Source: a phage
Length of the DNA: 64,000 nt
NCBI GenBank assembly: GCA_012401045.1
Contig: GCA_012401045.1_4704.1
Reading direction: 5' to 3' (one strand)
The first letter of the stretch is position 1. Every line of letters starts with the position of its first letter. The notes below the pieces were generated by a model. The model was not told where the DNA came from. It did no database searches and worked only from the letters and a program-made list of their open reading frames with translations. Of the stretch, positions 440 through 58,258 are shown piece after piece. The translations under genes and the position numbers were made by a program.

Positions 440-461
440 GAGGGGTATTATCCCACCCCTC
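440..461 (-). terminator. intergenic hairpin GAGGGG/CCCCTC
   Basis: Inverted repeat between the stop of ORF 472..1005 and the start of the partial gene at 387. Confidence 0.3.
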
Positions 462-471
462 GTAGGGATTA

Positions 472-1005
472 CTACTTAACGATCGCGATGATTTTGCCAC
501 CCGCACCGGCGTAATATGCCGTTAACTTACCAGTAAACAACTCTTGTAAAAGACGATTTACGTTACTAACAAAATTAGGATTGTCCGATTTTACAAACTC
601 GATGTGTCGCGTTTGTTTTACATCACGATCGATTAAGCGTATTTCCAATAACGCACAAATAAGGCTATCGTCAAGTTCACCATTTGCATCCAGCACATTC
701 CCATACGTCGTAGCACGGGCGTCTGCATACATACGGTCAACATCATCCTTCCCAAAACCACAGGAATAGGCATACGTTGCGATGGTATTACCATTATCCA
801 TCACATAAACGTTACCGCCTGGGTAATCGATAAATCGTTGGGATTTATCGCCATGAGCGACGAACTCCAACGTCGGTTTACCCATCGAATTACGGTTGAA
901 TTCAATTGTGGTCAAGCGATCTGGCACCACATGCAACGTGAACGGTTTCGCATTGTTACGATCGCTAGTATCGCAGTTGCCCATTACTTTTACGATAACA
1001 CTCAT
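472..1005 (-). CDS. hypothetical protein (177 aa)
   Basis: ORF track; compact minus-strand gene array. Confidence 0.5.
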   Translation of the reverse strand: MSVIVKVMGNCDTSDRNNAKPFTLHVVPDRLTTIEFNRNSMGKPTLEFVAHGDKSQRFIDYPGGNVYVMDNGNTIATYAYSCGFGKDDVDRMYADARATTYGNVLDANGELDDSLICALLEIRLIDRDVKQTRHIEFVKSDNPNFVSNVNRLLQELFTGKLTAYYAGAGGKIIAIVK

Positions 1006-1079
1006 GTTTTATTCCTTAGTAGTCCTAGTAGTAGTATTGAGGAATTTCACCTCATTAGATAGTCTATTTTGGTAATGTT

Positions 1080-1379
1080 TTACTGAAACAAGACATTAAA
1101 TTCGACAAGATACCCATCGGATCTATCGCCCCGATAACGGTTGCAGAAAACACCGAATTTCATCAAGAACGCACATAACTCTTCGGCTTTGTACAGCGGA
1201 ATACGATTTTCGTCGAGCAGAGGGCACTTATGGCTAACCCGCTCCGACGAATCAACGCAACACAAATAAAGAAGGAACCGAACGATAGCCCGGTTCTTAG
1301 TGAAGCTCTCGAATTCACCTGCGGTTCTGAACTCATCGAGGAGCTTTGTCGTTTTCTTCAATCGTTCACGATCAAGCAT
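1080..1379 (-). CDS. hypothetical protein (99 aa)
   Basis: ORF track; preceded on the minus strand by hairpin then TTATG. Confidence 0.45.
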   Translation of the reverse strand: MLDRERLKKTTKLLDEFRTAGEFESFTKNRAIVRFLLYLCCVDSSERVSHKCPLLDENRIPLYKAEELCAFLMKFGVFCNRYRGDRSDGYLVEFNVLFQ

Positions 1380-1401
1380 GTTAACCTCAATACGAACATA
1401 A

Positions 1402-1433
1402 CCCTCCTCCTTCCCTTACGGGTTGGAGGAGGG
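1402..1433 (-). terminator. CCCTCCTCC/GGAGGAGGG hairpin followed by TTATG on the coding strand
   Basis: 9-bp inverted repeat, member of the recurrent intergenic hairpin family. Confidence 0.4.
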
Positions 1434-1442
1434 AATATGCTG

Positions 1443-1757
1443 TTATTCTGTTTTCGGTGTTGAACCGTTCTTCTTGAAGTCGGATTCGTATTTCACGTTA
1501 GAATCGAGAACCTCACGAACGGTTTTATCCGTACAACCACGAGCGATGTATGCATTAAGATCATCACGTAATTTACGCATCGTTGTTTTATCCACATCAG
1601 AAACATCTGACTTGGTAAGACGGAATGCGATTGCATCGCGAATTTTATTCAACGTTGCTGGGTTATTACGCTGTTCTGCAAATACCGCTTTGATGAACTT
1701 ATCGCTATCTTTCGAAGCAATAGCAGCATCAAGAATCTCAATATGCTTTTCAGACAT
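1443..1757 (-). CDS. hypothetical protein (104 aa)
   Basis: ORF track. Confidence 0.5.
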   Translation of the reverse strand: MSEKHIEILDAAIASKDSDKFIKAVFAEQRNNPATLNKIRDAIAFRLTKSDVSDVDKTTMRKLRDDLNAYIARGCTDKTVREVLDSNVKYESDFKKNGSTPKTE

Positions 1758-1808
1758 CTTCTTTCCTTTAATAAACGATCATCGTCATATTCATTGCGCG
1801 TGACGTCG

Positions 1809-3062
1809 TCACTTCAGAAGCTTAGACGCCGCCATGCTTCGCGCCTTCGCAACGTCATACGCATCCATGATTGCGTCACCGATAGCGGTATGACGGATCA
1901 ACGGAATACCCATATCTGGATACTCTTTGGTACCTAAGATGGATACCGGTTTGTCTTGATATGCGGCAATCATCGAACGGATATCCTGAACCTGGTTATA
2001 ACGACAAACTGGCTTAAAGCCTGCTTTACGGAACCAATGCTCTAATTGAGGCCAATCTGTTTCACCGCGAGCAAGATAATAGAAGGCATCCTTACCGTAA
2101 TATTCGGTCATTTCATCACGGATATTGTTAACAAACGCATTCACTGTGGTAATGGCTTCTTTATAGTCCATCACTCCGTCATGCTGAAAACAATAGTCGC
2201 GCGCTTCCTTCGGTGCTTTGGTTTGCCACCATTCTACCGTGGACTTACTAATATCACCACCATCAGCGATTTGACCATAAACGTCAGGGAAGATATCTAT
2301 ACGTGGGCCGTTAATAACAGATTCTGGATTAGCTAGATCAAAGAACAAGATGCCGATTTCCAGCAGTACCCCGTTCTTTTCCAGACTGAGATTCTCCACA
2401 TCCAGGCAAAACGCAGGTTTCTCTACCGCTGAAAAATCAAAATATCCTTCGAAACGTGGCGTTGGTTCAGCAGCGAGAAACGTCTCATGGACGAACTGAG
2501 AGAATGTCTTATTCTCTGCTACTAAGTCAATGCCCAATTTACTTAGCAGTGGTATAAGCGCACGGTCGTTCTGCTCGATTATCACCAACTCTTGGTTTTT
2601 GATATAACGACCAATTGAGTAAAAAAGATGAACGATATCTAACGGTTTATACGGAGCCCCAAATGTTGTTCCCTGGAACGACTGAGCTAGCGCCTTATGC
2701 GTTTCTTCGCGATGATTCATCAGTTGGATAATAGCGCAGCGCAGATAATGCCGTAATGTTATCTCGTGAAGATGCGACGTATCTTCCTGAAATAACGTCA
2801 TGAAACCGTGATACGTATAATACTCTCCTCTTTTAATTTCTTCGAGGAGTTCTTTGTCCCCATTTATTTCCTCTGGTGTTATCGGTTCGATTTGATCGTG
2901 GATAATGTTGAGCAGGTCACTGCCGTGTACCTTAAACAGTTTTTCAACGTCAAGATTAGGTAAAGTCGCAATCGCCGCGTACATTAATGTTTCTGCGGGA
3001 TTAAGTTCTTTATTGTCAATTGTGATGGTTAAAGCCATTTTGTTATACCTCATCGAAATCAA
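1809..3062 (-). CDS. protein with C-terminal DEDDh (DnaQ-like) 3'-5' exonuclease domain
   Basis: Exo I-like FCLDVE and Exo III-like HTAIGDAIMDAYDV motifs in the C-terminal half; N-terminal half has no recognised motif. Confidence 0.5.
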   Translation of the reverse strand: MISMRYNKMALTITIDNKELNPAETLMYAAIATLPNLDVEKLFKVHGSDLLNIIHDQIEPITPEEINGDKELLEEIKRGEYYTYHGFMTLFQEDTSHLHEITLRHYLRCAIIQLMNHREETHKALAQSFQGTTFGAPYKPLDIVHLFYSIGRYIKNQELVIIEQNDRALIPLLSKLGIDLVAENKTFSQFVHETFLAAEPTPRFEGYFDFSAVEKPAFCLDVENLSLEKNGVLLEIGILFFDLANPESVINGPRIDIFPDVYGQIADGGDISKSTVEWWQTKAPKEARDYCFQHDGVMDYKEAITTVNAFVNNIRDEMTEYYGKDAFYYLARGETDWPQLEHWFRKAGFKPVCRYNQVQDIRSMIAAYQDKPVSILGTKEYPDMGIPLIRHTAIGDAIMDAYDVAKARSMAASKLLK

Positions 3063-3082
3063 ATTAGTTCAGTTCTGGTTTA

Positions 3083-3418
3083 TCATTCCGGTCTATCAGC
3101 AGCCAGACCAAGTCCAGTCAGCATCACGTAGTCGTACCAAGCTTTTACTTTTGCTTTCGCCTCATCTAAACTATCTGCGTTGATGTGCGAAAACTCATCG
3201 TTGACTGGGAAAGGTAAATCGCAGTCGTAGCTTGTATAGTCTTTCCAACCTTTCCATTCGATAGTTAGAGAACCAAAAACGGTCTCAGCAACAACGTGGT
3301 TATAGCGACATTCTTCACATGGCGAGCGCTCTTCCGACCAAACAAGCTCATGCTGCGCTAAAAGTTGTTGTACGACCGATAACGGTTGCTCTTCATTAAG
3401 TTCGATGCTGTCTATCAT
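3083..3418 (-). CDS. hypothetical protein (111 aa)
   Basis: ORF track; 4-nt overlap with upstream gene. Confidence 0.45.
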   Translation of the reverse strand: MIDSIELNEEQPLSVVQQLLAQHELVWSEERSPCEECRYNHVVAETVFGSLTIEWKGWKDYTSYDCDLPFPVNDEFSHINADSLDEAKAKVKAWYDYVMLTGLGLAADRPE

Positions 3419-4011
3419 CGTATACCCTCCTTTTCCTTATCGTAATCGCTGCAAATATTGACAAACGCAGTATTATCAGACAGCGTGGCGACCATCTGAC
3501 GGATTGCGTCCAACGGTTCAAGTTTAGGATTGATTGATTCACCGGTCAACGCGCTTATTGCTCGTGTGATCTCAACCAAATCAACGTTCGGGTCGTTATC
3601 ATCGATGACGAGCAGACTCTTCGCTGGTTTCTGACGACGTTTGATGATCAACAAATACGTGATGAGATTCTCACGCCATGCGTCAGAATCCAGATTGCGT
3701 ATCAGGGTTAACGCACGACGTTCTTCCGCCCACGATGGTTTCTCACGGATAACAGGCATGTAAGATAACTGCTCAGCAAGTCCTTTCAAACTGACACGGT
3801 TGGTACCACCAGGATGCTCACTAATCCGCAACATCTCGGTTAACAGACGGACATAGGCGGCTGTTGTCGAAACACCCCTCAACGGCAGGAACACATTATG
3901 TCCTGGGACACCATCGTGACTCAGCGGTGCGATATACGCCATGAATCGCCGAATATCATCATCGGTCTGTTCCCCAGCAACGAACTTAAACGCTTCACGT
4001 AAAACGCTCAC
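3415..4011 (-). CDS. hypothetical protein (198 aa)
   Basis: ORF track. Confidence 0.5.
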   Translation of the reverse strand: MSVLREAFKFVAGEQTDDDIRRFMAYIAPLSHDGVPGHNVFLPLRGVSTTAAYVRLLTEMLRISEHPGGTNRVSLKGLAEQLSYMPVIREKPSWAEERRALTLIRNLDSDAWRENLITYLLIIKRRQKPAKSLLVIDDNDPNVDLVEITRAISALTGESINPKLEPLDAIRQMVATLSDNTAFVNICSDYDKEKEGIR

Positions 4012-4297
4012 TATGAAGTCTCCTTAATGTTTCTTGCATACGTAGTCTCTTCGGCAGAAATAGACGTTTGTATAGATCAATTAACAGATAACGCATAACA
4101 GAAGCGACCACCAGGTATTCACCTTCAGCTTCCGAATAACGTATCATGTTAATTGGGTAATTCAAATAAGAATAAGAAAAGAGATCATCGTTGGTAAGGT
4201 GATGATCTTCAAGATACTGACGAAACAATTTTGCTAAGGCATCGTACTCCATTCCGTAGTAACACAACGACACCTGTCTTGCAGATAGTCGTTTCAT
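3995..4297 (-). CDS. hypothetical protein (100 aa)
   Basis: ORF track. Confidence 0.4.
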   Translation of the reverse strand: MKRLSARQVSLCYYGMEYDALAKLFRQYLEDHHLTNDDLFSYSYLNYPINMIRYSEAEGEYLVVASVMRYLLIDLYKRLFLPKRLRMQETLRRLHSERFT

Positions 4298-5136
4298 GCT
4301 GGGTTACCTTTTAGTTTTCCACGTATCATGTCGACAACGCGTGAGGGATCAGAAATAACATTGGCGATAAGATGATCGATAGGTAGGTCGAGAATGATAT
4401 TCTTCAGCTGGAAAGCCGTATCTTTACGACGCACGCCGTAGAACACGCCATCTTTAAACACAACCTCGTACGAGATGGGGAGCTGGCTAATAACCGTGTT
4501 AGCGTAATCACCCAACCACATCGACCCCGCCATCAGATGCGCACAAACCGCATGACTAATACGCACATCTTTGTTCTTCCGGTTAACGTCTTTGGTTTTC
4601 GACATGGTAACCAGAAGCTCACCGATCTTACTCAGCATATCGTCGTATACCCCAAAGAACTTAATCAGTTGTCGGGCACCTAACGATATATATGTTTCTC
4701 GTGGTAAGACACAACACACCTGCGGTAACGTTCCAACCCCATAGACACAACTGTGTGGTGATAATGGAAGCAAATCAGCAACCGCGTTCTTGATGTTGTT
4801 ATACTCAACGATATCGTTGAACGGTGAAAGACCTTTCGTAATCGGTTTATCAATCGCCACATCGAACTCCGCGAACGTCCATGCTGATTTACGTGGTTCC
4901 CCTTTCTGGTACGGTGGAGCCAGTACCGCGACAACACGAAGTCGATGTTCATGGGTATCACGTAGCTTAAGTTGGATACCCTCACCGTCACCCTCACGCA
5001 CAAGTGAGTAGCGGCTTGCGCAGTCATCACATACCACCGTTGGTTCGTGTTGACCGTATGCTGCAAGCATCGGTTTACTAAGATCTTTATCACAGTGTTT
5101 ACAGCGATGATCCTGTTCCTGATAACTAATTTTCAC
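4294..5136 (-). CDS. hypothetical Zn-ribbon protein (280 aa)
   Basis: N-terminal CKHCDK...CDDC cysteine pairs. Confidence 0.5.
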   Translation of the reverse strand: MKISYQEQDHRCKHCDKDLSKPMLAAYGQHEPTVVCDDCASRYSLVREGDGEGIQLKLRDTHEHRLRVVAVLAPPYQKGEPRKSAWTFAEFDVAIDKPITKGLSPFNDIVEYNNIKNAVADLLPLSPHSCVYGVGTLPQVCCVLPRETYISLGARQLIKFFGVYDDMLSKIGELLVTMSKTKDVNRKNKDVRISHAVCAHLMAGSMWLGDYANTVISQLPISYEVVFKDGVFYGVRRKDTAFQLKNIILDLPIDHLIANVISDPSRVVDMIRGKLKGNPA

Positions 5137-5151
5137 ACCGAGACCCCTTTG

Positions 5152-6374: not shown

Positions 6375-6385
6375 CTTCCTCTATG

Positions 6386-6907: not shown

Positions 6908-6961
6908 TCTTTCGATTCCTATTAAAAGTGACCGATTTCTGTGGTCGAGATTGCTAATAAA

Positions 6962-7423: not shown

Positions 7424-7470
7424 GTCCTATACGAACATGAAAAACCGTTAATTTTTACCGTAGTCGCGTG

Positions 7471-7746: not shown

Positions 7747-7784
7747 CTTTATCTCCTTAACAGGTGCTGGTAACGCAGCATAAA

Positions 7785-7802
7785 CCCTCCCCGAAGGGAG
7801 GG
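7785..7802 (-). terminator. CCCTCCC-loop-GGGAGGG hairpin followed by TTTATG
   Basis: Lies between the stop of 7813..8370 and the start of 7471..7746. Confidence 0.4.
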
Positions 7803-7812
7803 CGATTAACGA

Positions 7813-9702: not shown

Positions 9703-9731
9703 CTCCTCCCCAGGAAAGGTGTGGGGAGGAG
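9703..9731 (+). terminator. CTCCTCCCC/GGGGAGGAG hairpin followed by TTTTTA
   Basis: 9-bp perfect inverted repeat in a divergent intergenic region; overlaps the GTG start proposed by the ORF track. Confidence 0.35.
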
Positions 9732-9766
9732 TTTTTATCATACATTCTATTAAATCGAGCGCGATT

Positions 9767-11848: not shown

Positions 11849-11947
11849 TTAAGAAGCTCTGCCTGACATCAGGCAGAGCTTTATGCTGTATTTGTTGCAA
11901 GATCGTATGACGTATATGCGTTGTACTTATTTAATAAGGCAGAATAA

Positions 11948-13422: not shown

Positions 13423-13455
13423 CTTCCTCCCTACCCATAACGGGCGGGGAGGAAG
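13423..13455 (+). terminator. intrinsic terminator-like hairpin followed by TTTTATGG
   Basis: CTTCCTCCC/GGGAGGAAG 9-bp stem 20 nt after the stop of 11948..13402, in a convergent gap. Confidence 0.45.
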
Positions 13456-13473
13456 GTTTTATGGCGTTATGAC

Positions 13474-19666: not shown

Positions 19667-19779
19667 AATCTCATTTCCTCTTCTACGTAGAAATAGATGA
19701 CATGTTGGATATACGTTGCCTTTGCATATATTGCTTTATTTCCGTCAGAAATAACGGAAAATAAAACAACGACATAGTT

Positions 19780-19809
19780 CCCTCCCACCTCCACGTGGGA
19801 GAGGGAGGG
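19780..19809 (-). terminator. CCCTCCC...GGGAGGG hairpin with internal CCACGTGG palindrome
   Basis: Intergenic inverted repeat between 19823..20185 and 19181..19666. Confidence 0.35.
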
Positions 19810-20565: not shown

Positions 20566-20642
20566 ACCAGGGATCCTTTTAAGTCTTCACATTCTAGTGT
20601 TAAGCAGTTAAAATAAACCGTTCCTTTAATCAGCATAAACAT

Positions 20643-20671
20643 CCTCCTCCCACCACATGGGCAGGAGGAGG
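20643..20671 (-). terminator. CCTCCTCC/GGAGGAGG hairpin followed by TGTTTATG
   Basis: 8-bp inverted repeat between 20683..21093 and 20218..20565. Confidence 0.4.
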
Positions 20672-23663: not shown

Positions 23664-23692
23664 CCCTCCCACAGCGTAAAGCGTAGGGAGGG
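23664..23692 (+). terminator. CCCTCCC...GGGAGGG hairpin followed by CATTTATG
   Basis: Directly after the stop of 23305..23658 in a convergent gap. Confidence 0.45.
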
Positions 23693-23723
23693 CATTTATG
23701 CCGTCGTTCGATGACTTAATACA

Positions 23724-25031: not shown

Positions 25032-25053
25032 GGTCCCCCTACAACAGGGGACC
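25032..25053 (-). terminator. GGTCCCC/GGGGACC hairpin
   Basis: 7-bp inverted repeat between 25060..26646 and 23724..25004. Confidence 0.35.
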
Positions 25054-28310: not shown

Positions 28311-28439
28311 ATTTTGGATTCCGGCTGAGTTATCGCTCAGCATGCAAGGCATCCCGCCGAAGCGAGACACCTTGCACTAACGGAAAATATTCGCGTTACC
28401 TTCTGAATCGAAGACTCAGAATGCGATGCTAAAGCATGA

Positions 28440-32897: not shown

Positions 32898-33015
32898 TCC
32901 GTTCTCCTCAAGCTTTTCATTTCATAGAGTGGTGGAAATTCGTAGAAAGTTACAAAAATAAAAAAGAATGGGCAGCCCCTCCCCACCCGAAGGTAGGGAG
33001 AGACCGCAAATATAC

Positions 33016-33599: not shown

Positions 33600-34436
33600 T
33601 TAACGTGTTCTCCTATCACGATGCGTATACGACTGAAGACCGATGTCCATATGCGGTAACGTCAGCGTCTGCCAGATCTGTCGTGCGTAACGATCGAGCG
33701 TATGATCATCAGTAACACAATCGACGGGTTCGATGAGGTGAGTCGTATACTGGCTTTTCTCAGAGAAAGGTTCGATGTTAGCTGTATCGCCTAATCCGCT
33801 TTTCACCGTGAAGACAAGACGTGTGACGATCATCGCCTTATGCTGCTGTTCATTATAACGAAGGCTGCGGTATACGGCATAGCTTCCTCCTTTTAGGCTT
33901 CGGGTATAACGAAGGTCGGAGGTCGTCTCGGAAATCTGATACAGCATCCAGTCCAACGTATCACGCCAGTACGCATCATCCACATCAGGAACCGTAATAC
34001 CGTACCGCGTAGGCAGCAATTCTAAAAGCAATTTATAAAGTCCGCGACGTAAGCCATGCTCTTCTGTTTCCGATAAACCGTTTCCAACATAACGTGAAAT
34101 ACGCGTACGTAAATACGTACGGATGAACATATTCGCCATCAGTGTTTTCACTCTGCTACTGGTATCCTCAAAGCGATCAACGCTGAAACTCGTTTCAATC
34201 AGCCGTCCATTAAAATACAATGCAGCAACATACATCGCGTTATTACTATCACGTTCAATGTTTAAACGACCGCAGATATTAGCCGCATCGTTCATGGTAA
34301 ATTCTAATTTATCGTGTTCGATACGATAGATAATATCCTCTTGGGTTGCCAGGCTCGCAATGCGACGGTAGCCCGGAGAAGTACGTTTTACACTCATAAT
34401 TGTCCTCGTTTTCAATTTTAAGATTGCATGCGGCAT
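33600..34436 (-). CDS. hypothetical protein (278 aa)
   Basis: ORF track; GAGGA upstream of ATG. Confidence 0.45.
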   Translation of the reverse strand: MPHAILKLKTRTIMSVKRTSPGYRRIASLATQEDIIYRIEHDKLEFTMNDAANICGRLNIERDSNNAMYVAALYFNGRLIETSFSVDRFEDTSSRVKTLMANMFIRTYLRTRISRYVGNGLSETEEHGLRRGLYKLLLELLPTRYGITVPDVDDAYWRDTLDWMLYQISETTSDLRYTRSLKGGSYAVYRSLRYNEQQHKAMIVTRLVFTVKSGLGDTANIEPFSEKSQYTTHLIEPVDCVTDDHTLDRYARQIWQTLTLPHMDIGLQSYTHRDRRTR

Positions 34437-34439
34437 AAA

Positions 34440-34464
34440 CCCTCCCCGCCTTATGCAGGGAGGG
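34440..34464 (-). terminator. CCCTCCCC...GGGAGGG hairpin followed by TTTATG
   Basis: Between the stop of 34480..35118 and the start of 33600..34436. Confidence 0.4.
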
Positions 34465-37359: not shown

Positions 37360-37401
37360 GGGGTATCTCCTACAAATGAAAAAGAACGTTAGGACGTATA
37401 A

Positions 37402-37425
37402 GGGAGGGAGGTTGCCCTCCCTCCC
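37402..37425 (-). terminator. GGGAGGGAGG-TTGC-CCTCCCTCCC hairpin followed by TTATACG on the coding strand
   Basis: 10-bp perfect inverted repeat between the 631-aa gene and the beta-prime gene. Confidence 0.4.
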
Positions 37426-40696: not shown

Positions 40697-40699
40697 TAA

Positions 40700-40757
40700 C
40701 CTCCCTCCTCCCTTGCATCCTCCCAACCCGTAAGGGAAGGGAGGATGGGGTGGTGGG
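40700..40757 (+). terminator. extended pyrimidine/purine hairpin followed by TTATG, likely bidirectional
   Basis: CATCCTCCC/GGGAGGATG core with outer CCTCC/GGTGG pairing in the convergent gap between 39602..40696 and 40763..42916. Confidence 0.45.
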
Positions 40758-40762
40758 TTATG

Positions 40763-42916
40763 TTACTCTGCGGTTTCTTGCTTCGGTAAATAACTTGCTG
40801 CGATGTCTTGGGCTAACAATGTATTGTTTTTATTCGAGATGAAAATACCATAACTTTCCATTAACGCGTAATACGAACGCACGAGCGTAGAGATCAATCG
40901 ACGAATATCCATACCTTGAATAAAGATATCAGGAAGCCCGGAGGCTTCGATCACCGGTAATGGTATCGTTAAGTTGCTTATCGTTTTCTTATCGTTACGT
41001 ACAATCCAATCACGGAAACGTTGTTGTAACCCTTTATCCTCCCAGGAATCAATCCAATCGTTAAGAAGCGTTTTGTTCTTCGTCGCCAACGGCACACGAA
41101 CCCCAACATAGGGTGGTTCAGGGCAATGGCCGTACGATTGAGCAAACACCTCTTCCCACATATCGTAAGACTGTTTCGTTACTGCAACATGCGGTTTCAC
41201 TTTAACACGCGTTAAGAAATCAGGATCACCACGTTTCATAGACTCAACGATTTCGTTTTCTAACGAGATAATATCGTCAAGAACCAATCGAATGCTGATC
41301 TTCTCGTTACGTAACAGCTTATCCATGATACCACACATCATGCGTTCAACACGTTTGACGATCATTTTTGGTGCTGACGCATCACGCATAACCGGACCTT
41401 TCAATTCCAGCTTCGGTGGATTGATAGGAACCCCCTCACGCATGGTCATGTAACCGTAATAGTTTTTACCCATCGAGGTTAACGACAGAATCAAGAACAT
41501 ATATTCGTTCTTCATTTCCATCACGTACATATGCTCTTTCGCCACACCGATATTACCAGAACACATCGCCATCAGATGAACCGTAATCTGCGTAACCAGA
41601 TAGATAAGCGTGTTTGCTAAGCGCGTCGAAACTGGATTGATCTCCATATTTCCAAATCGCCACTGAACCCACTCCTGGCAGGTAAACACCGTCGAGTCGG
41701 TATCAGACAACACACCCACTTCACGGATTGCTGATGGGAAAGCATAAACACCAGCCGGTTGGTTCTCGGTACGCCAGAACGCCATAATCAAATCAGCATA
41801 GCTTTGAATACGCTGTAGCATTAATTTTGTCGTTGCTGCAGTAAGACGATAACCAAGCTCATTTCCTTTTTCTAGCGCTACGTAAATCGCTTCCCCATTC
41901 AAGAACTCCGTACATTGTGCTGTAATCCAAGCGACCGTGTTGTTATCCATGGAAGCAATAATGGCTTTAGCCTCTTCCATCGTTTCAACAGGTTCGGATG
42001 CCAGCTCGCATAACGAATCAAGAAAATCTCGAACAAATTCAGGATTAAGCTCACGTAACGAGTACAGGTTATTGCTGTACATGTAGCAGGCACGTTCCAA
42101 CGGTGTTAAACCAGTAATTAACTCCCGGATAGTCAGTTCTTTCTCTGGGTCGAAAGTATATCGATGCAAGCATTTCGATACGTTAGCCCAAACCTCTTCC
42201 GGCGTAGGGTAATGTAGTTTGTATTTTACCATTACCTGTTCAATGGCTTTACGATCGCTGTTGCGGACAATACTCACGATGTTTTCAATTGCGATATCAC
42301 AATCGTAATAATGGAAATTGCCCGCAAGGAAGCGTTCGTTGTTCGCATTGGCTGAACCTGAAGCACAGCGACACGTTGTCGTTAAACTTGGATGCGCAAT
42401 TGGATTATAAAAAGGGTTAAACTTGGACGCCTGGGTTCCTGACAAACTGTTGTTATCTAACTTGGTGTTGGTTTGTCGTTTATCGTGTAACTCAGCTTCA
42501 TCTTTACGTCCGTGTGCTTGCGCTATCGACATTTGTTTCTTTTGTTTCTTACGCAACTTACCGTTTTCAACCGCAAAGTCGCTTAGCACACTGGAACGTG
42601 TTTCACGTGGATAACAGTTAGCCCACACCGGCGTGATAATTAAATTATTTTCTTTAATATCATTGAAGTATTGGCTGAACTTGATGACTTCTTTTTCTCG
42701 ATTTCCTTCGGTGCGCTGTGTTAATACAAGGCAGTCGGGATCAACCATCCCGTATTTTCCACCAGGACGAACCGTATCAAGGACAAACTGCAACGCTTCC
42801 TGCTGTGATATCCCACGCATGCGCATTAAGAACAGGGTATAATCCTGTACCGCTTCTTTGGTCATATCCAACGTACGGCCATATCCGTTTTCATCGTAAA
42901 AGAACGGATTTTCCAT
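40763..42916 (-). CDS. large hypothetical protein (717 aa), possible polymerase-like enzyme
   Basis: GGAGGA upstream of ATG 42916; single LSDTDS motif resembling a polymerase Mg-binding motif, other polymerase motifs not found. Confidence 0.45.
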   Translation of the reverse strand: MENPFFYDENGYGRTLDMTKEAVQDYTLFLMRMRGISQQEALQFVLDTVRPGGKYGMVDPDCLVLTQRTEGNREKEVIKFSQYFNDIKENNLIITPVWANCYPRETRSSVLSDFAVENGKLRKKQKKQMSIAQAHGRKDEAELHDKRQTNTKLDNNSLSGTQASKFNPFYNPIAHPSLTTTCRCASGSANANNERFLAGNFHYYDCDIAIENIVSIVRNSDRKAIEQVMVKYKLHYPTPEEVWANVSKCLHRYTFDPEKELTIRELITGLTPLERACYMYSNNLYSLRELNPEFVRDFLDSLCELASEPVETMEEAKAIIASMDNNTVAWITAQCTEFLNGEAIYVALEKGNELGYRLTAATTKLMLQRIQSYADLIMAFWRTENQPAGVYAFPSAIREVGVLSDTDSTVFTCQEWVQWRFGNMEINPVSTRLANTLIYLVTQITVHLMAMCSGNIGVAKEHMYVMEMKNEYMFLILSLTSMGKNYYGYMTMREGVPINPPKLELKGPVMRDASAPKMIVKRVERMMCGIMDKLLRNEKISIRLVLDDIISLENEIVESMKRGDPDFLTRVKVKPHVAVTKQSYDMWEEVFAQSYGHCPEPPYVGVRVPLATKNKTLLNDWIDSWEDKGLQQRFRDWIVRNDKKTISNLTIPLPVIEASGLPDIFIQGMDIRRLISTLVRSYYALMESYGIFISNKNNTLLAQDIAASYLPKQETAE

Positions 42917-42980
42917 AAATCCTCCAAAAGTTATTTAGTCTGTCTACATCATCTCGTATATCTGTTAAAAAAGAAGGACG

Positions 42981-43019
42981 GCATAAAAAAGAACCGATCC
43001 AGCCGAAGCCAGATCGGTT
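42981..43019 (-). terminator. rho-independent terminator
   Basis: AACCGATC/GATCGGTT 8-bp stem followed on the minus strand by TTTTTTATGCC. Confidence 0.55.
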
Positions 43020-47013: not shown

Positions 47014-47066
47014 GCTTTCTCCTACACGGCATAAAAGCCTGCCCCGAAGGACAGGCTCGATAGAAC

Positions 47067-49192: not shown

Positions 49193-49800
49193 TTAACGAC
49201 AGCTTCCTCCCTCGGTGTTTTCGAGGGAGGTATTTGCCGTTTAAACACTTTCAGCACGTTCGCAAATTCAGCGGCAATAATACAGGCCGAGGTTGATAGC
49301 TTATTACTGAAAATGAGATCGTCCGGTAAACAATCGAACTGAATACCGTATTGCGTCTTTGTCTCATCAACGATCAATGACGGTGTCGATCTTGTCTTCG
49401 CGATGTCGGTGATATACAAACGTAGAAATAATTCACCGTCTTCGCTATCCATAAAACGATAGGCGTTACCAGAAAACGCAACACATGGCGTAACGATAAA
49501 TTGAACACGATCGTCGGTCGGATGGATATTTAACCAACGTTCGATATCATTACTACTCACATTTCGCATATTTACTACGGTAAAAGCAAATAGCGTATCG
49601 TGATGTTTGGAATAATGCAGCACGTACGCCGCACCTTTCTTTTTGTGAATCCCTTCAATGTATTCTATTGTCGTATAGCCGGATTTATATAGCTTTACTT
49701 GCGGTTTATCACTCATCATAACAACCCTTCCCGTTTCATCGCGGCACGCATACTTGCGTAAAGCGCATTCTTCATTGCACCCGGACGCAACGGATAACAA
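49183..49800 (-). CDS. hypothetical protein (205 aa)
   Basis: ORF track; C-terminal codons run through a CCTCCCTCG/CGAGGGAGG hairpin at 49206-49230. Confidence 0.45.
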   Translation of the reverse strand: MLSVASGCNEECALRKYACRDETGRVVMMSDKPQVKLYKSGYTTIEYIEGIHKKKGAAYVLHYSKHHDTLFAFTVVNMRNVSSNDIERWLNIHPTDDRVQFIVTPCVAFSGNAYRFMDSEDGELFLRLYITDIAKTRSTPSLIVDETKTQYGIQFDCLPDDLIFSNKLSTSACIIAAEFANVLKVFKRQIPPSKTPREEAVVNQK

Positions 49801-52255: not shown

Positions 52256-52510
52256 GATAGAAATCCTTAGTATGTTTGATATGTTGTTTAATTAACATAT
52301 TAAGTTTAAAAGAGGTTATGTTTTACGTATTGTTAATAACGTATTCTTATCTCTATTAAGTTATGTTCTATCTAAAGATAGTAAACAGATATAATGCTCC
52401 CCACCTCCCCATTCTCCCAAGTAATACTGGCCTACCGGCTCTCTCCTTTTTAAGGGAGAGAGTAAGCATTCAGTATTGCTCAAATGAATAAGCAAAACAG
52501 TATAAACTTA

Positions 52511-52534
52511 CCGTCTCGAGTTATCTCGAGACGG
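52511..52534 (-). terminator. rho-independent terminator
   Basis: Perfect 10-bp inverted repeat CCGTCTCGAG-TTAT-CTCGAGACGG about 30 nt after the stop of 52564..52917, followed on the minus strand by a U-rich run. Confidence 0.5.
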
Positions 52535-53501: not shown

Positions 53502-54049
53502 CTTGTAATCCTTAATTTACCTGAATGAATTATCGTTGATGGGTCCACGACGCGACCGTATTTCGCGTTACGTAATACACGATGCCCAAAGAAGTCAGCG
53601 GTTTCCAAAACAACCGTGTAACAACCCAGCTGATGTTGATGTCCCCAAAACCGTTCAATGGGAATCCAGCAGGGCGACATGCCTTTGTGTCGCCAATCCG
53701 TAACACAGCCGAATTCAGCAAACTGTTCAGTAAACCACTCGTCAATGTCGGTATCCGTAAAGAGAAACACGTGGTTTTTAACCAGATAAGCGAACCCAGG
53801 ATAAAAAAGCTGAGGGTCATCTGGGTCACGGAGATAAACACGAAGTTTGTCTAGCGTACCCTCGACAACGATTGTATCGGGTAATCCTGGCGGCGTGAAC
53901 CGAAGTTGGAAGTTATCCTCGTTTGCCGAGGCGTTAACCAAATACCCCAGTTGAAGGGGTCGATGCAATTCGAAAAGGTTAAACGTTAATGCATATTCGA
54001 TATACTCTAATCCTATATTCATGTCTGACCTATGTGGTATGGACGGCAT
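53498..54049 (-). CDS. hypothetical protein (183 aa)
   Basis: ORF track; 4-nt overlap with downstream gene. Confidence 0.45.
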   Translation of the reverse strand: MPSIPHRSDMNIGLEYIEYALTFNLFELHRPLQLGYLVNASANEDNFQLRFTPPGLPDTIVVEGTLDKLRVYLRDPDDPQLFYPGFAYLVKNHVFLFTDTDIDEWFTEQFAEFGCVTDWRHKGMSPCWIPIERFWGHQHQLGCYTVVLETADFFGHRVLRNAKYGRVVDPSTIIHSGKLRITR

Positions 54050-54154
54050 TGCATTGCCTTCCGCGAGTGTAATCAGGAAGGTAATGTAGGTTTATTTTAA
54101 TCTCCATTTCGCGATGATATGACAGTCTTTATTACGTTTACCATCTGAGGGAGC

Positions 54155-55399: not shown

Positions 55400-55551
55400 C
55401 AATGTAACGGTAAAACTTTACTGACGTTGGTTATTATTTGAAGCATAGGGCTTCACCCAGGAGTACCATCCCTTTAAGTCGTTTATCCTCTCCTGGTTAA
55501 CTGTCGTTCTCTCACAGTGCTCGACAGACCAAAAATGCTCAGGCCTCATAG

Positions 55552-55580
55552 CCTCCTCTGGGAATGGAACCCAGAGGAGG
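55552..55580 (+). terminator. CCTCCTCTGG/CCAGAGGAGG hairpin followed by ACTATG
   Basis: 10-bp perfect inverted repeat about 150 nt after the stop of 54155..55399. Confidence 0.35.
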
Positions 55581-55592
55581 ACTATGTTTGCC

Positions 55593-55901
55593 TTAAAATT
55601 CAACGCGACCTTTTGTCGTAAACAATACACCTCTTTGCCAACAGAAAAGATCCTCCGATTGAGCGCAAACACGAATACCCGCATCGAATAGATGTTTTGT
55701 TCTAGCGCTTAAACAATCAGGATCTTCTACATACAACAGAAGACGTTGGCATTTATTTTGAATGCGTTCGACAAGGATGTTCTTATCGCTTAAAATAAAA
55801 TGCGCGTTATCTGTTAAGTTATCGTCGGTTTCCAGCTGCTTGACAAGTTTGATTAAAATACGTAATTGCTCAAGTGTGTCATGATCAAGTGAATCACCCA
55901 T
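55593..55901 (-). CDS. hypothetical protein (about 102 aa)
   Basis: Start placed at ATG 55901 (GAGGT upstream) rather than the TTG at 55913. Confidence 0.4.
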   Translation of the reverse strand: MGDSLDHDTLEQLRILIKLVKQLETDDNLTDNAHFILSDKNILVERIQNKCQRLLLYVEDPDCLSARTKHLFDAGIRVCAQSEDLFCWQRGVLFTTKGRVEF

Positions 55902-55986
55902 GGCGTACCTCAACGTTATACGTCGTTTGTATTATAATACGCTATCGTCTCCCCGCCAGTATTAACGGGGAGTCTGCAGACTACTC

Positions 55987-58218
55987 TTAGAAAAAACCGC
56001 CCGGGCGGTATTGACCCATCGTCATCCACGCATTACGAGAAATATTCCGTTCATTCGAAGAGCGGCTTATTTGACGATAAGTATTCGCTCGTTCCTCCCT
56101 TGCTTTCGTGATCATCGCATCAATAGAAACAGCCGCTGAATCCTCCCCACGTATTTTTCCTTTATACGTAAGAAGCTCTGCCTCCAATCGATCCAAGATA
56201 AGGCCGTTGGTTTCGGTCTTAAGCAACTCATAGATTTCAGCAACGCGTTGACGTAGCTTCGCCTGCTGTTGGTTAAGATACGCTTCATACGGATCGATTT
56301 CACCCGTTACAGATGCTGGTAAACGACTCATGACTTTAAGTGGATCGATACCGTAATGGATCTGTTTCTTAGCACGCTTGATGAACCACATCGCTAACAT
56401 CCATGCGAACGTCATGTCATCGTGCATTCCATCCTGGTGATCGACACGCCCATCTTTGATAACCAATCCGAGGATCTCGGAACACAGCATCTTGTCACGT
56501 AACTGCCCGCGGGTTTCTACAATACCTTCCATCAAGATGTCGGAATACAACTCCATACGTTTGCGCGCATCCGTTGTGAAGCCTAAATGCCGTTTACGTT
56601 GAGCATACCAACTTTCATCACGCATGCTCAATGGTAATTTCAGGTCTTCGAACATCGCTGGATTATCAGCATGCCTGTCTACAATCGTGTTGTATACGCG
56701 TTTGAACACGTCGATGCCCGCTTGCCGCAAGAACTCTTCAATTGCGTCTAACAGCATGATTGCACTGCTTTTACGTTCAGGAATCAACGTAACGTTCTTA
56801 AAACGCATCATGAAGTTGGCCATCCAACGAGCAAAAGAAAGCAGACTCAGTTTATTAAAACGTCCTGTCGCAACAACTTCTGCTGTTTCTACATCCACCA
56901 TCACCAAACCGATAGCGTCACGACCTATTGCATCGCTGGTGTCTAAACCAGCAACCACCTTATTGTTCTGCATGTATGTCTCGATTTTACCTCGAGGTAT
57001 ATACCAGTTAATGCAGTAGCCTTCAGGTGAGATCTCGATATGGTCGATTTCACGTTGTCCCGCCATGATCATCTCAACCATCTCAGCGGTTAACGGGCTT
57101 TCTGCTGAACCGTTGGTCCAGATGTTCATGTAGTCGCGGTCTTTCTGAAGTTTATCACCTTCCGTTTCGTTCATGGTTTTTGCTAACCATTCATCACTGA
57201 AGCCCAGCTGAGCGTGGTTCCATTGTGCCCCGATCCTGACGGTTGCTTTGCTGAGCTCGCACGGCACGTTGTTCAATACCGTCTGATGCAGATGCTTTTC
57301 ATTACGGCAGTCAAAGAAACTTTCAGAGAACGGCGCTGAACGCATGAAAACTTCATAAGCCCATTTGCCTTCGCGTTTATCCAATTCACCTGCTGTTGTC
57401 GTATAGATGATACTCGTCAGGTCGCCGTTGCTTAATGCTTCATCGCGTGCCGCACCCATCGCACCGATACCAGCAGGAACAATGATTTCGATGTATTTCG
57501 TAAACGCGGTTTCGTCGCTATGAAATAGCGGGGTTGTTAGACCACGGCCGATGTTTGTTGCTTGTTTCTTATCCGAACGTGGAATCTTTACCGATAACTT
57601 GTTCTTGAAACGTGTGTAGGTTACGTTCTCTTTGTTCGATGAATCACGGCTATCCAGCGTCCAGAGATACGCAGGCAGCAGATCACGTATACTACGCACA
57701 TCTTCTACTGTTTTCGTACGGGCATCACCGTCTTTTGTTAACTGAATAACCTCGGTGTTTCGACTACGAACATAGGTTAGATAGCAGAACAATCCTAACA
57801 TGGTCATGGATTTACCCGTCTGACGTATCTGTATCTGATACCAGTTCGTTCGGGTAAATATTCCCCAGAGCATCGGAATGTTACCGCGGTTAGCACGGAA
57901 TGAAATTTTGTTATCACCCGCTTTAGCCGGAACACGCATCACTTCACGGAAGAAGTACCATGGATTAAGATAGCATTCCGCACTGATCATCTGAATCTGT
58001 TCTGACGTCAAATTCGGTGCGTGGGGATCAACACCAATCAATCTTGGGTTTAATAACGCCATGAAAAACGCAGAGTTCCGGACACCGAATTCACGACGAT
58101 ATAAGATCGCTAAATCACGCCAACTTGTGTTTGTTGTTTCCCAGTGTGGAACAGCCTGAGGAAAATAATCCCAATCTTCCTCAAACAAGATGATTTTCTT
58201 CGGATCGACAATCGACAT
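55987..58218 (-). CDS. terL: terminase large subunit (T4 gp17-like ATPase-nuclease)
   Basis: Deviant Walker A IRQTGKS (T4 SRQLGKT type), Walker B-like LFHSDE, coupling motif TTTAG, nuclease acidic residues in GLDTSD and DGMHDD; GAGGAG upstream of ATG. Confidence 0.8.
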   Translation of the reverse strand: MSIVDPKKIILFEEDWDYFPQAVPHWETTNTSWRDLAILYRREFGVRNSAFFMALLNPRLIGVDPHAPNLTSEQIQMISAECYLNPWYFFREVMRVPAKAGDNKISFRANRGNIPMLWGIFTRTNWYQIQIRQTGKSMTMLGLFCYLTYVRSRNTEVIQLTKDGDARTKTVEDVRSIRDLLPAYLWTLDSRDSSNKENVTYTRFKNKLSVKIPRSDKKQATNIGRGLTTPLFHSDETAFTKYIEIIVPAGIGAMGAARDEALSNGDLTSIIYTTTAGELDKREGKWAYEVFMRSAPFSESFFDCRNEKHLHQTVLNNVPCELSKATVRIGAQWNHAQLGFSDEWLAKTMNETEGDKLQKDRDYMNIWTNGSAESPLTAEMVEMIMAGQREIDHIEISPEGYCINWYIPRGKIETYMQNNKVVAGLDTSDAIGRDAIGLVMVDVETAEVVATGRFNKLSLLSFARWMANFMMRFKNVTLIPERKSSAIMLLDAIEEFLRQAGIDVFKRVYNTIVDRHADNPAMFEDLKLPLSMRDESWYAQRKRHLGFTTDARKRMELYSDILMEGIVETRGQLRDKMLCSEILGLVIKDGRVDHQDGMHDDMTFAWMLAMWFIKRAKKQIHYGIDPLKVMSRLPASVTGEIDPYEAYLNQQQAKLRQRVAEIYELLKTETNGLILDRLEAELLTYKGKIRGEDSAAVSIDAMITKAREERANTYRQISRSSNERNISRNAWMTMGQYRPGGFF
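55990..56009 (-). terminator. rho-independent terminator overlapping the last codons of the terminase gene
   Basis: ACCGCCCGGGCGGT palindrome followed on the minus strand by TTTTTT and then the TAA stop. Confidence 0.5.
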
Positions 58219-58229
58219 ATAAACTCCTC

Positions 58230-58258
58230 CGATGGAGGGTGCCGAGCACCCTCCATCG
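58230..58258 (-). terminator. 12-bp perfect hairpin immediately upstream of the terminase ribosome-binding site
   Basis: CGATGGAGGGTG-CCGAG-CACCCTCCATCG; on the minus strand followed by GAGGAGTTTATATG, the terminase SD and start. Confidence 0.45.

Follow-up and report, generated by a model that had tools for sequence, protein, structure and literature searches.

The CCCTCCC/GGGAGGG hairpins that recur along this 64,000-nt stretch of phage DNA (the window), many of them followed by TTATG, are very probably factor-independent (intrinsic) terminators that belong to the conserved phiKZ type and serve the multisubunit RNA polymerases encoded by a Goslar-like chimallivirus; for the Goslar-like phage, this assignment draws on homology and position. 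The window shares ~95% identity with Escherichia phage Goslar (Chimalliviridae) and encodes homologues of phiKZ-type RNA polymerase subunits. The terminator signal is already known, having been experimentally mapped in the Pseudomonas phage phiKZ, and the Goslar-like E. coli giant phage provides a new example of it.

Census, stability and conservation of the hairpins

A sequence-only reading had listed 14 inverted repeats with a polypyrimidine arm and a matching polypurine arm, and all 14 were found at the coordinates given. We identified 10 further hairpins of the same kind (11854–11881, 25032–25053, 28342–28377, 32972–33007, 42992–43019, 47035–47058, 52439–52462, 52511–52534, 54049–54089 and 55949–55972), which brings the total to 24 hairpin loci (Table 1). 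The described arms hold for most of the listed repeats, with the order reversed (purine-rich arm first) at 440–461, 37402–37425 and 58230–58258, and the intergenic location likewise holds for most, the exception being 49206–49230, which lies inside a gene on the opposite strand. Among loci with arms at least 80% of one base class, 12 are pyrimidine-first and 2 purine-first (two-sided binomial p~0.013). The stems at 11854, 42992 and 47035 are not of the pyrimidine/purine type, yet they are followed by the tail TATGCTG or TTATGCCGT.

Folded as RNA, each of the 14 listed repeats forms one stable hairpin (−13.2 to −35.6 kcal/mol). The fold-energy and coding-versus-intergenic comparisons proposed with the earlier reading both came out in its favour: against dinucleotide shuffles the z scores run from −2.3 to −7.0, with 10 of the 14 equalled by 0 of 200 shuffles, and the density of hairpins of −20 kcal/mol or below is ~62 times higher in intergenic than in coding DNA. 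Perfect inverted repeats with a C-rich pyrimidine-first arm and a stem of at least 7 number 10 in the window (mean 0.3, maximum 2, in 60 dinucleotide shuffles), and 9 of these 10 fall within the 8% of the window that is intergenic. A generic hairpin-plus-T-run scan showed no enrichment (23 vs. 17.5 ± 4.8), and over 1–20 kb it recovered only two family members.

The transcribed strand folds more stably in 13 cases and less stably in 3 (Wilcoxon p=0.0025), a difference that arises from G-U pairs. Among three Goslar-like genomes, substitutions are fewest in stems (1.5%), with 3.4% in flanks and 10.1% in loops; differences in pairing comprise a single compensatory change, one insertion that is paired, and switches between G-U and G-C or A-U.

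Table 1. Hairpin elements of the window, with tails and comparison to related genomes
Element	Position	Strand	Features
Putative terminator hairpin after gp144	440..461	-	Purine arm first, GAGGGGUG...UACCCCUC; tail AATTTGTTG, without TATG; 10 nt past stop; orthologous site a putative terminator in the Goslar record, with a paired G/C insertion there (stem +1 bp)
Canonical member	1393..1433	-	CCCTCCTCC...GGAGGAGGG (1402-1433) + tail TTATGTTCG; -24.2 kcal/mol; 9 nt past gp146 stop; + strand tail AATATGCTG scores too
Canonical member	7776..7802	-	CCCTCCC-TTCG-GGGAGGG + TTTATGCTG; top match of phiKZ-trained matrix, 20.9 bits; stem and loop (7785-7802) identical to phiKZ terminator T057
Hairpin upstream of gp160	9703..9739	+	CTCCTCCCCA...TGGGGAGGAG + TTTTTATC; divergent intergenic region, 35 nt before gp160; probably terminator or attenuator in 5' untranslated region (precedent: phiKZ terminator T102); marked terminator in Goslar; TATG at 9661, ~40 nt upstream
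Putative terminator after gp160	11854..11888	+	Stem AAGCTCTGCCTG...; tail TATGCTG; 16.2 bits; annotated terminator in Goslar, which has CATG in place of TATG
Canonical member, convergent gp161/gp162 junction	13423..13466	+	Tail GTTTTATGGCG; hairpin and TTTATG kept relative to Goslar, both flanks diverged
Canonical member after gp168	19770..19809	-	Tail AACTATGTCG; 19.2 bits; a single loop base is the only difference in Goslar and the IMG/VR genome
Canonical member after gp170	20631..20671	-	Tail ATGTTTATGCTG; transcribed strand 4.7 kcal/mol more stable
Canonical member, convergent gp172/gp173 junction	23664..23704	+	+ tail CATTTATGCCGT; - tail TTATC; looks bidirectional from tails on both strands
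Terminator-like hairpin after gp174	25032..25053	-	GGUCCCCU...GGGGGACC; tail GTTGACG, without TATG
16-bp hairpin 62 nt after gp176	28342..28377	-	Transcribed strand 9.9 kcal/mol more stable; early-promoter-like TATATTAC ~42 nt downstream (at 28293)
Putative terminator after gp182	32955..33007	-	16-bp pyrimidine-to-purine stem, then T-rich tract CCATTCTTTTTTATTTTTG; transcribed strand 16.7 kcal/mol more stable; C-G pair replaced by U-A in IMG/VR genome (one compensatory change)
Canonical member after gp184	34431..34464	-	Tail TTTATGCCG, its ATG the annotated gp183 start; 20.2 bits
Purine-first hairpin after gp189	37395..37425	-	GGGAGGGAGG-GCAA-CCUCCCUCCC; tail TTATACG
Composite 58-nt hairpin, convergent gp190/gp191 junction	40700..40766	+	+ tail TTATGTTAC; - tail TTATTATG; -35.6 kcal/mol
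Putative terminator in long gp192/gp191 spacer	42978..43019	-	Stem not pyrimidine/purine; tail CTTTTTTATGCCGT; annotated terminator in Goslar
Putative terminator after gp200	47026..47058	-	GAGCCUGUCC-UUCG-GGGCAGGCUU; tail TTATGCCGT; 14.0 bits; annotated terminator in Goslar
Canonical stem, 13 nt past gp202 stop	49206..49240	+	Within 3' end of opposite-strand gp203; tail TATTTGCCGT
Two hairpins after gp208	52439..52534	-	52511-52534, tail TAAGTTTATACTG; 52439-52462, CUCUCUCC...GGAGAGAG, without TAT tail
Hairpin + GTTTATTTT	54049..54098	+	Divergent region, 71 nt before gp211; + strand 7.7 kcal/mol more stable; probably terminator in 5' untranslated region
Putative bidirectional terminator, convergent gp211/gp212 junction	55547..55586	.	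CATAG-hairpin-CTATG, giving each strand a TATG past the stem
Terminator-like hairpin after gp213	55949..55972	-	CUCCCCG...CGGGGAG; tail ACGATAGCG, without TATG
13-bp hairpin after gp214	58230..58258	-	Followed by GGAGGAG ribosome-binding site and gp213 start; z -6.97
Palindrome core at 1402-1433	1402..1433		Inverted relative to Goslar

Placement and tail

Most of the hairpins had been described as sitting between a stop and the next start, and 18 of 25 strand-specific cases indeed begin 5–26 nt past a same-strand stop codon. Downstream genes mostly begin 21–255 nt beyond the hairpin, with GGAG-type ribosome-binding sites of their own outside it. At the four convergent junctions (13423, 23664, 40700 and 55552) there is no same-strand gene downstream; all four carry a TATG tail, and at all four TAT-type tails are found on both strands.

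The tail consensus of the window hairpins is TTTATG(C/T)(C/T)GT. A TATG-type sequence following the stems was borne out at 13 of 24 loci, where one strand or both have TATG no more than 10 nt from the stem (~0.7 expected, as estimated from TATG frequency across the whole window); it is absent at ~11 of 24 loci, and the family is therefore heterogeneous. TTATGYYG occurs at 15 sites, 8 of them intergenic and 7 directly after a strong hairpin, one of the latter (34431–34438) overlapping the gp183 start codon and hence scored as coding. As a U-tract, the tail is poor by bacterial standards. The TTATGCCG tail was found again in three other chimalliviruses, in which the stems are not pyrimidine/purine. 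Of all tetranucleotides, TATG is also the one most depleted from genes in the window, and its avoidance inside genes recurs in other chimalliviruses, which fits its being read by a phage polymerase.

Match to mapped terminators

The phiKZ terminator motif is BCCYCCCCHWWDGGGRRGGBYTTATKYYGT (61 terminators; Putzeys et al. 2024, microLife, PMC10914365), and ‘motif A’ of 201phi2-1 (n=59 terminators) closely resembles it (PMC11512511). A 19-nt matrix built from 18 mapped phiKZ terminators alone gave 9 matches of at least 14 bits in the window vs. 0.52 in shuffles, and 8 of these 9 are window hairpins. In phiKZ itself, a hairpin-plus-TAT scan of 100–150 kb matched the mapped ends T046, T049–T052, T054, T057, T059, T060, T063, T064 and T065, nanopore 3′ ends in this phage being accurate to a few nt but by themselves unable to tell termination from trimming to a protective hairpin. 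Post-stop placement, stability of the transcribed strand, and the match in sequence and architecture to mapped phiKZ terminators thus uphold the earlier suggestion of intrinsic terminators with a short U-tract.

Alternative readings

The post-hairpin TATG could also serve the non-virion polymerase as a late promoter, with every element closing one transcript and opening the following one. The phiKZ late promoter element is indeed 5′-TATG-3′ with G as +1 (Yakunina et al. 2015, PMC4666361; structure PMC12809450), and the non-virion polymerase requires it to initiate, its β-like subunit binding TATG on the non-template strand (PMC4666361, PMC12809450). The tails share these identical four bases in the same orientation to genes; nine TATG-tailed hairpins precede a same-strand gene start by 3–113 nt (eight of these genes, at 21–113 nt, with their own ribosome-binding site), and the strong avoidance of TATG in genes is as for a functional signal. 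In phiKZ, transcription from P049 and P075 begins a few nt beyond a terminator hairpin, at a second TATG, and early promoters frequently lie 10–45 nt past terminators, as in the window at 28293. However, of 119 mapped start sites examined in phiKZ (P008–P126), not one uses a terminator's own TTATG, late start sites there being mostly without a preceding hairpin, and the TATG tails at the four convergent junctions have no same-strand gene to drive, so a strict terminator-promoter cassette finds no support. Moreover, the tail is conserved past the +1 G (YYGT), a stretch not conserved in phiKZ late promoters, the 3′ ends mapped in phiKZ fall on this G or after it, initiation at G would delete the gp183 start codon, and Goslar carries CATG at the 11854 site. 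We consider a promoter role for these TATGs unlikely, although individual sites may have one.

Terminators in appearance only, the hairpins might instead block 3′-to-5′ exonucleases or mark cleavage. Protection of mRNAs by stable 3′ hairpins is known in bacteria and phages, the U-tract is weak, and the ambiguity of nanopore 3′ ends applies here directly. Exonuclease blocking, however, would not need a conserved TTATGYYGT tail downstream of the stem, and the closely similar 201phi2-1 terminators lowered downstream expression when placed between two reporters in vivo (PMC11512511), a read-out as expected for termination from a design that on its own is compatible with cleavage or differential RNA stability. 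In that Pseudomonas chlororaphis assay, six of eight terminators equalled or bettered the lambda T0 control (PMC11512511). Protection and termination are mutually compatible, and we hold it quite improbable that the hairpins serve in 3′-end protection or processing in place of termination.

Translational control, with the purine 3′ arm serving the following gene as Shine-Dalgarno and masked by the pyrimidine arm so that the hairpins mainly govern ribosome access, has very little chance of being the general explanation. GGGAGGG and GGAGGAGG match a Shine-Dalgarno core perfectly, CCUCC resembles the 16S rRNA anti-Shine-Dalgarno, and gp183 (start 34436) fits, as the sole gene to use the ATG of TTTATG and one whose only candidate ribosome-binding site is the 3′ arm, lying 3 nt before the annotated ATG. 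All other genes, however, start 11–255 nt downstream with a GGAG-type site outside the hairpin, so the proposed likeness of the purine arms to Shine-Dalgarno sequences translates into a plausible role at gp183 only; the same hairpins also occur at convergent junctions and closely past stops, the 11854, 42992 and 47035 elements keep the tail without such arms, and the phiKZ counterparts coincide with transcript 3′ ends. Finally, a DNA-level element unrelated to transcription (a cruciform, a protein-binding site or a REP/MITE-type dispersed mobile palindrome) is scarcely credible, for although the repeats lie scattered between genes and are palindromic, and the inverted core at 1402–1433 is a DNA-level event, the fold differs between strands owing to G-U pairs and favours the transcribed one, the copies have no common sequence beyond arms and tail, with varying stem length and loop, and their spacing to stop codons is tight.

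Proposed mechanism

For termination, we propose that the polymerase transcribes past the stop codon, mostly reaching a hairpin 5–26 nt on, and that the nascent RNA would then form a G+C-rich hairpin of 7–16 bp, its 5′ arm nearly all C/U and its 3′ arm nearly all G/A; such folding is supported by stability, strand asymmetry, and conserved stems with variable loops. The polymerase would now stand on a weak U/A-rich hybrid from TTTATG(C/T)(C/T) and release the transcript there, by extension from phiKZ, where nanopore-mapped 3′ ends lie in the tail (e.g. ...GGGCUUUAUGUU before G at T057). With palindromic flanks (CATAA...TTATG), one hairpin could halt transcription from both sides at convergent genes, and the copies just before gp160 and gp211 would probably stop transcription early, within 5′ untranslated regions. 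As its start codon lies within the tail, gp183 would be translatable only from read-through RNA, which implies that termination is leaky at some sites. Conservation of A, G and YYGT in the tail suggests that a putative sequence-specific pause may add to the effect of the weak hybrid; given the poor U-tract and a generic scan that misses most members, efficient termination may need a putative feature of the phage enzyme.

Comparison with known systems

Bacterial intrinsic (Rho-independent) terminators likewise combine a G+C-rich hairpin with a downstream U-rich segment that pairs weakly, release being expected 7–9 nt past the stem, and likewise need no accessory factors, to judge by the six 201phi2-1 terminators that performed at least as well as lambda T0 in an assay that presumably uses the host polymerase. 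The present hairpins differ in that the U-tract is short and broken by a conserved A and G (UUUAUGYY), few are found by a generic hairpin-plus-T-run scan, arm composition is strongly asymmetric, and the tail is conserved in sequence, beyond mere U-richness.

Relative to phiKZ and 201phi2-1, where the terminators are experimentally mapped, the window, with terminators predicted from sequence, has longer and more variable loops and stems (up to 58 nt, 40700–40757), and about half of its hairpin loci are without a TATG tail. The RNA polymerase proteins of the Goslar-like phage and phiKZ are only ~30% identical, and its host is E. coli and its G+C content 46%, vs. 38% in phiKZ. Common to all three are a pyrimidine-first, C-rich 5′ arm with a G/A 3′ arm, short and often UUCG-like loops, a TTATG(Y)(Y)GT tail immediately after the stem, post-stop placement, bidirectional CATAA...TTATG copies at convergent genes, copies in 5′ untranslated regions, and a genome that codes for phiKZ-type virion and non-virion RNA polymerases.

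Results

Over an 8-kb stretch sampled at 7000-15000, the window is 95.5% identical to Escherichia phage vB_EcoM_Goslar (MK327938.1), a Goslarvirus and nucleus-forming jumbo phage, and an IMG/VR scan for relatives returned only Goslar and one more, distinct Goslar-like genome (IMGVR_UViG_3300011560_000001; 237,533 bp; 94-95% identical to the window), neither of which the window matches exactly. The next relatives in the phage collection stand at ~30% protein identity, and since intermediate relatives were found in neither source, covariation among orthologous hairpins is restricted to three close genomes. Placing Goslar proteins gp143-gp216 on the window by tblastn gave ~72 genes, almost all on the minus strand, with a coding share of 92% and ~5.2 kb (8%) intergenic; ARAGORN found no tRNAs in the window.

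A family of intergenic hairpins

All 14 inverted repeats listed in a sequence-only reading are present, and each forms one stable RNA hairpin (-13.2 to -35.6 kcal/mol; z = -2.3 to -7.0 against dinucleotide shuffles). In the members starting at 440, 37402 and 58230 a purine-rich arm leads. That reading had placed the repeats between genes, which holds except for 49206-49230, which lies inside the end of opposite-strand gp203 and begins 13 nt past the gp202 stop. Pyrimidine-first loci outnumber purine-first loci 12 to 2, and this excess is a real asymmetry because the reverse complement of an inverted repeat retains its arm order. The window has 10 perfect inverted repeats whose 5' arm is a C-rich pyrimidine stretch (shuffle mean 0.3, maximum 2), nine of them within the intergenic 8%, and hairpins of -20 kcal/mol or below, far from being equally frequent in coding sequence, are ~62 times denser in intergenic DNA. 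A scan of both strands added ten more terminator-like hairpins, and an Rfam scan at gathering thresholds assigned no family to any hairpin. Aligned, the 14 members have a mean column identity of 47%, with nothing in common beyond arm cores and a TTATG tail and with unrelated flanks, which argues against dispersed mobile palindromes (REP or MITE-like).

In 18 of 25 strand-specific cases the hairpin begins 5-26 nt past a same-strand stop codon; two hairpins, at 9703-9731 and 54049-54089, stand a short distance ahead of plus-strand genes in divergent regions. The TATG that had been noticed after the stems is there, within 10 nt, at 13 of 24 loci. The post-stem sequence aligns to TTTATG(C/T)(C/T)GT, more than to TTATG alone, and reads TTATGCCG in five members and TTATGCTG in three. 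TTATGYYG occurs 15 times in the window, eight times between genes and seven times directly after a strong hairpin, and three tail-bearing members have stems of other than pyrimidine/purine composition. One hairpin stands at each of the four convergent junctions, with TAT-type tails on both strands (table).

Positions of selected features in the window
Feature	Position	Strand	Remark
CATAG-hairpin-CTATG	55547-55586	both	example of a convergent-junction hairpin
TATATTAC copy	9607-9614	-	upstream of gp159 (four copies: 48-93 nt upstream)
TATATTAC copy	28293-28300	-	upstream of gp175
TATATTAC copy	33574-33581	-	upstream of gp182
TATATTAC copy	39420-39427	-	upstream of gp189
Hairpin and tail at the gp183 start	34431-34464	-	tail ATG is the annotated start
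gp161	11948-13402	+	
gp164, helicase-like gene	14771-17032	-	753 aa in window vs 524 aa in Goslar
gp164 in-frame insert	about 15913-16592		~229 aa
Group I intron match	35727-36094	-	49.3 bits, E = 2e-11
Second, weaker group I intron match	35411-35724	-	
Region of both intron matches	35374-36094	-	~1065 bp of Goslar absent

Evidence at the RNA level

In unidirectional contexts the transcribed strand folds more stably in 13 cases and less stably in 3 (Wilcoxon p = 0.0025), since G-U pairs on that strand are A-C mismatches on the opposite one. Substitutions among the three Goslar-like genomes amount to 1.5% in stems, 3.4% in flanks and 10.1% in loops, and the changes include one compensatory C-G to U-A pair at 32972-33007, a single paired insertion of G/C at 440-461, and interchanges of G-U with G-C or A-U. 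At 13423-13455 hairpin and TTTATG are intact, with both flanks diverged from Goslar. These observations favour an RNA rather than a DNA element.

The hairpin at 1402-1433 presents a separate curiosity: its inner 14 nt (AACCCGTAAGGGAA, minus strand) are the exact reverse complement of Goslar TTCCCTTACGGGTT and its outer arms are identical, so that the hairpin core is flipped between the window phage and Goslar.

Several genes also differ from their Goslar counterparts (table). The protein encoded by gp161 retains 61% identity, against 95-99% for its neighbours, and the gene is a hot spot of local divergence or replacement flanked by conserved putative terminators. The last residues of the gp164 insert, ...IVTHN, with T next, are reminiscent of an intein C-terminal motif. 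Two group I intron matches, the stronger just below the Rfam threshold of 50 bits, lie in a region where the window does not have ~1065 bp that in Goslar carry a NUMOD1/HNH homing endonuclease gene (gp186).

Correspondence with mapped phiKZ terminators

Transcript ends of phiKZ have been mapped by ONT-cappable-seq (Putzeys et al. 2024, PMC10914365); we took mapped ends and start-site sequences from the bioRxiv supplement. Scanned for hairpins followed by TAT, phiKZ 100-150 kb gives hits at the mapped ends T046, T049-T052, T054, T057, T059, T060, T063, T064 and T065. The sequence of T057, downstream of the major capsid gene, is GGCCCTCCC-TTCG-GGGAGGGC-TTTATGTTG, and its mapped 3' end is ...GGGCUUUAUGUU, with G as the next base; the window hairpin at 7785-7802 is identical to it in stem and loop. 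A covariance model was dropped, as MAFFT set the stems in differing registers in the window set and the phiKZ set alike, and was replaced by an ungapped matrix, anchored on TAT, that covers 3' arm and tail. Built from nothing but 18 mapped phiKZ terminators, this 19-nt matrix scored 9 window sites at 14 bits or more, where shuffles give 0.52; eight of the sites are family hairpins, and three outscore the best of 50 shuffles. The suggestion that the hairpins are intrinsic terminators is thus supported by their position, their conservation at the RNA level and their formal match to mapped phiKZ terminators.

Hairpins with a bacterial-type U-tract (five or more T among the first 8 bases past the stem) were not enriched in a generic scan of 1-20 kb (23 sites vs 17.5 ± 4.8 in shuffles), which recovered only 440-461 and 7785-7802 of the family; a T-rich tract does follow 32972-33007. 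The Goslar record marks five putative terminators in the region, two among the 14 hairpins first listed and three others. The poor yield of T-run searches accounts for the family having so far gone unannotated.

Promoter and ribosome-binding readings

The matches of gp165 extend to polymerase subunit genes of phiKZ and ~300 other jumbo phages (roughly 30% identity); the Goslar annotation notes call gp165, gp171 and gp188 weakly similar to RNA polymerase subunits, and Pfam returned no matches for these or for gp164. By sequence similarity, the phage genome encodes phiKZ-like multisubunit virion and non-virion RNA polymerases. As a side observation, sigma-70-type promoter-like sites in 1-20000 number 26, fewer than the 38.1 ± 6.0 in shuffles, a deficit that fits a phage not dependent on the host polymerase.

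TATG is the late-promoter element of phiKZ: transcription starts at its G, and initiation requires it, although it does not suffice (PMC4666361). The non-template strand is where the beta-like subunit GP123 binds it (PMC12809450). The motif is present at window hairpins, which had also been suggested to be terminator-promoter cassettes with TATG as a late-promoter start. As a general explanation this is not supported: among 119 mapped phiKZ start sites (P008-P126, compared as 50-nt upstream sequences), none uses the terminator's own TTATG; tails occur at convergent junctions; conservation continues past the G; and the start codon of gp183 lies within a tail. The late starts P049 and P075 use a second TATG a few nt further on, and several phiKZ early promoters lie 10-45 nt downstream of a terminator. 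Promoters of phiKZ thus tend to follow terminators, and the tail TATG itself has no detectable start site there. Better promoter candidates than the tail TATGs are four window copies of TATATTAC, the core of phiKZ early promoters, all intergenic and on the coding strand (table). They share the context TTTCAC/GGG-YTATATTACYT, one lies ~42 nt beyond the 28342-28377 hairpin, and we regard them as candidate early promoters of the virion polymerase.

The resemblance of the purine arms to Shine-Dalgarno sequences, which would require them ~4-10 nt upstream of a start, does not hold in general: the sole candidate is gp183, whose annotated ATG, that of the tail TTTATG, comes 3 nt after a GGGAGGG arm and has no Shine-Dalgarno candidate but this 3' arm, and the other annotated starts lie 11-255 nt downstream, each with its own GGAG-type site. 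No other gene has its annotated start in a tail (table); gp183 presumably depends on read-through RNA and would also need the hairpin opened.

Tail and stem in other phages

We sampled 30 kb around the polymerase genes of each comparison phage. Pyrimidine-first hairpins with a TAT tail number 11 per 30-kb sample in the window, 14 in phiKZ, 1 in SEGD1 and 2 in the Vibrio phage, with none in the Ea35-70, RSF1 and AR9 samples; the counts of 0, 0, 1 and 2 in Ea35-70, RSF1, SEGD1 and the Vibrio phage led us to reject a stem universal across Chimalliviridae. In Ea35-70, RSF1 and the Vibrio phage, TTATGCCG(T) follows strong hairpins whose composition is different, and SEGD1 and AR9 have T-tracts after hairpins. 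As it is kept in three of four sampled chimalliviruses, the tail is, within these small samples, more widely conserved than the stem type. (In a test for hairpins upstream of the tail, a threshold of -11 kcal/mol let too much through, the background being 16-33%, and the output serves as examples only.)

None of the 256 tetranucleotides is as depleted as TATG on the sense strand of window genes (204 occurrences, with codon shuffles predicting 308; z = -7.0); its rank is 3rd in phiKZ, 7th in SEGD1, 11th in RSF1, 21st in Ea35-70, 46th in the Vibrio phage and 104th in AR9. An effect of the host or of the TA dinucleotide is not supported, since E. coli K-12 (ratio 0.96) and T4 (0.90) show no depletion and TACG is enriched. 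The avoidance acts through codon context: before G, the tyrosine codon TAT is disfavoured relative to TAC in the window (odds ratio 0.35, p = 1e-11), the odds ratio of NNT|ATG to NNC|ATG is 0.48, and T-ending codons are disfavoured before ATG in 6 of 6 chimalliviruses (odds ratios 0.27-0.58), an avoidance that AR9, T4 and E. coli K-12 do not share. These data show selection on TATG as a signal in chimalliviruses; the cost of a stray copy may lie in initiation, pausing or termination. Within Goslar, the TATG ratio is 0.83 at 132-156 kb and 0.64 at 156-199 kb, a difference that may follow gene class or the transcribing polymerase.

Discussion

Position, orientation, pairing in RNA and sequence identity with mapped phiKZ terminators are observed features of these hairpins, and the mechanism that we propose for them is as follows. 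The polymerase would transcribe the pyrimidine arm, which would be unable to pair with itself; the purine arm would be transcribed next and the hairpin would form, leaving the enzyme on a weak UUUAUGYY hybrid from which the RNA would be released. At T057 and T051 of phiKZ the transcript ends in a pyrimidine, the conserved G comes next and the last stem Gs are ~10 nt upstream; other phiKZ ends differ by a few nt, within the resolution of the method. The arrangement at T057 and T051 resembles the G-10/Y-1/G+1 consensus for elemental pausing by bacterial polymerases.

Persistence of the tail in further genera with different stems suggests that the phage polymerase reads it as sequence, and TATG avoidance in chimallivirus genes points the same way and bears on how a late-promoter element of 4 bases achieves specificity. 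A bolder idea, which we consider rather unlikely, is that TATG is a dual-use word for chimallivirus polymerases, whose promoter pocket might also read the terminator tail. In phiKZ this pocket belongs to the beta-like subunit of the non-virion polymerase, where it binds non-template TATG and sets the late start sites. Under dual use it would also capture the TATG exposed after the hairpin and make the enzyme pause during elongation, its RNA ending in a pyrimidine and G being the next nucleotide, so that a short, imperfect U-tract would terminate efficiently. Dual use would explain why the tail, rather than stem composition, is shared by the Goslar-like phage, phiKZ, Ea35-70, RSF1 and the Vibrio chimallivirus, why TATG heads the depleted sense-strand tetranucleotides of window genes, and why T-ending codons are avoided before Met in six chimalliviruses and not in AR9, T4 or E. 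coli. The literature that we searched holds no paper linking the terminator tail to the promoter pocket; the family-wide avoidance of TATG makes such a reading of the tail worth a bench test.

Standard T-run terminator predictors overlook most sites of the family. Recognizing the motif leads to a transcription-unit map for the E. coli model of nucleus-forming jumbo phages, and also yields compact terminator parts.

Among known systems, canonical bacterial intrinsic terminators differ from this family in their U-tract. The closest counterpart is the motif 5'-BCCYCCCCHWWDGGGRRGGBYTTATKYYGT-3', common to 61 predicted intrinsic terminators of phiKZ (PMC10914365), which has exactly the architecture seen in the window, including YYGT after TTATG. 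It is strongly resembled by 'motif A' of 201phi2-1 (n = 59), for which six of eight terminators in a Pseudomonas chlororaphis reporter assay performed at least as well as the lambda T0 control (PMC11512511). With 3' ends mapped in the tail, or measurable termination, in phiKZ and 201phi2-1, the window hairpins are by analogy putative terminators, and our results support assigning them to the known phiKZ-type terminators as a Goslar-lineage member with an E. coli host; one sequence-specific stop signal would then be shared by Pseudomonas and E. coli phages whose polymerases are only ~30% identical.
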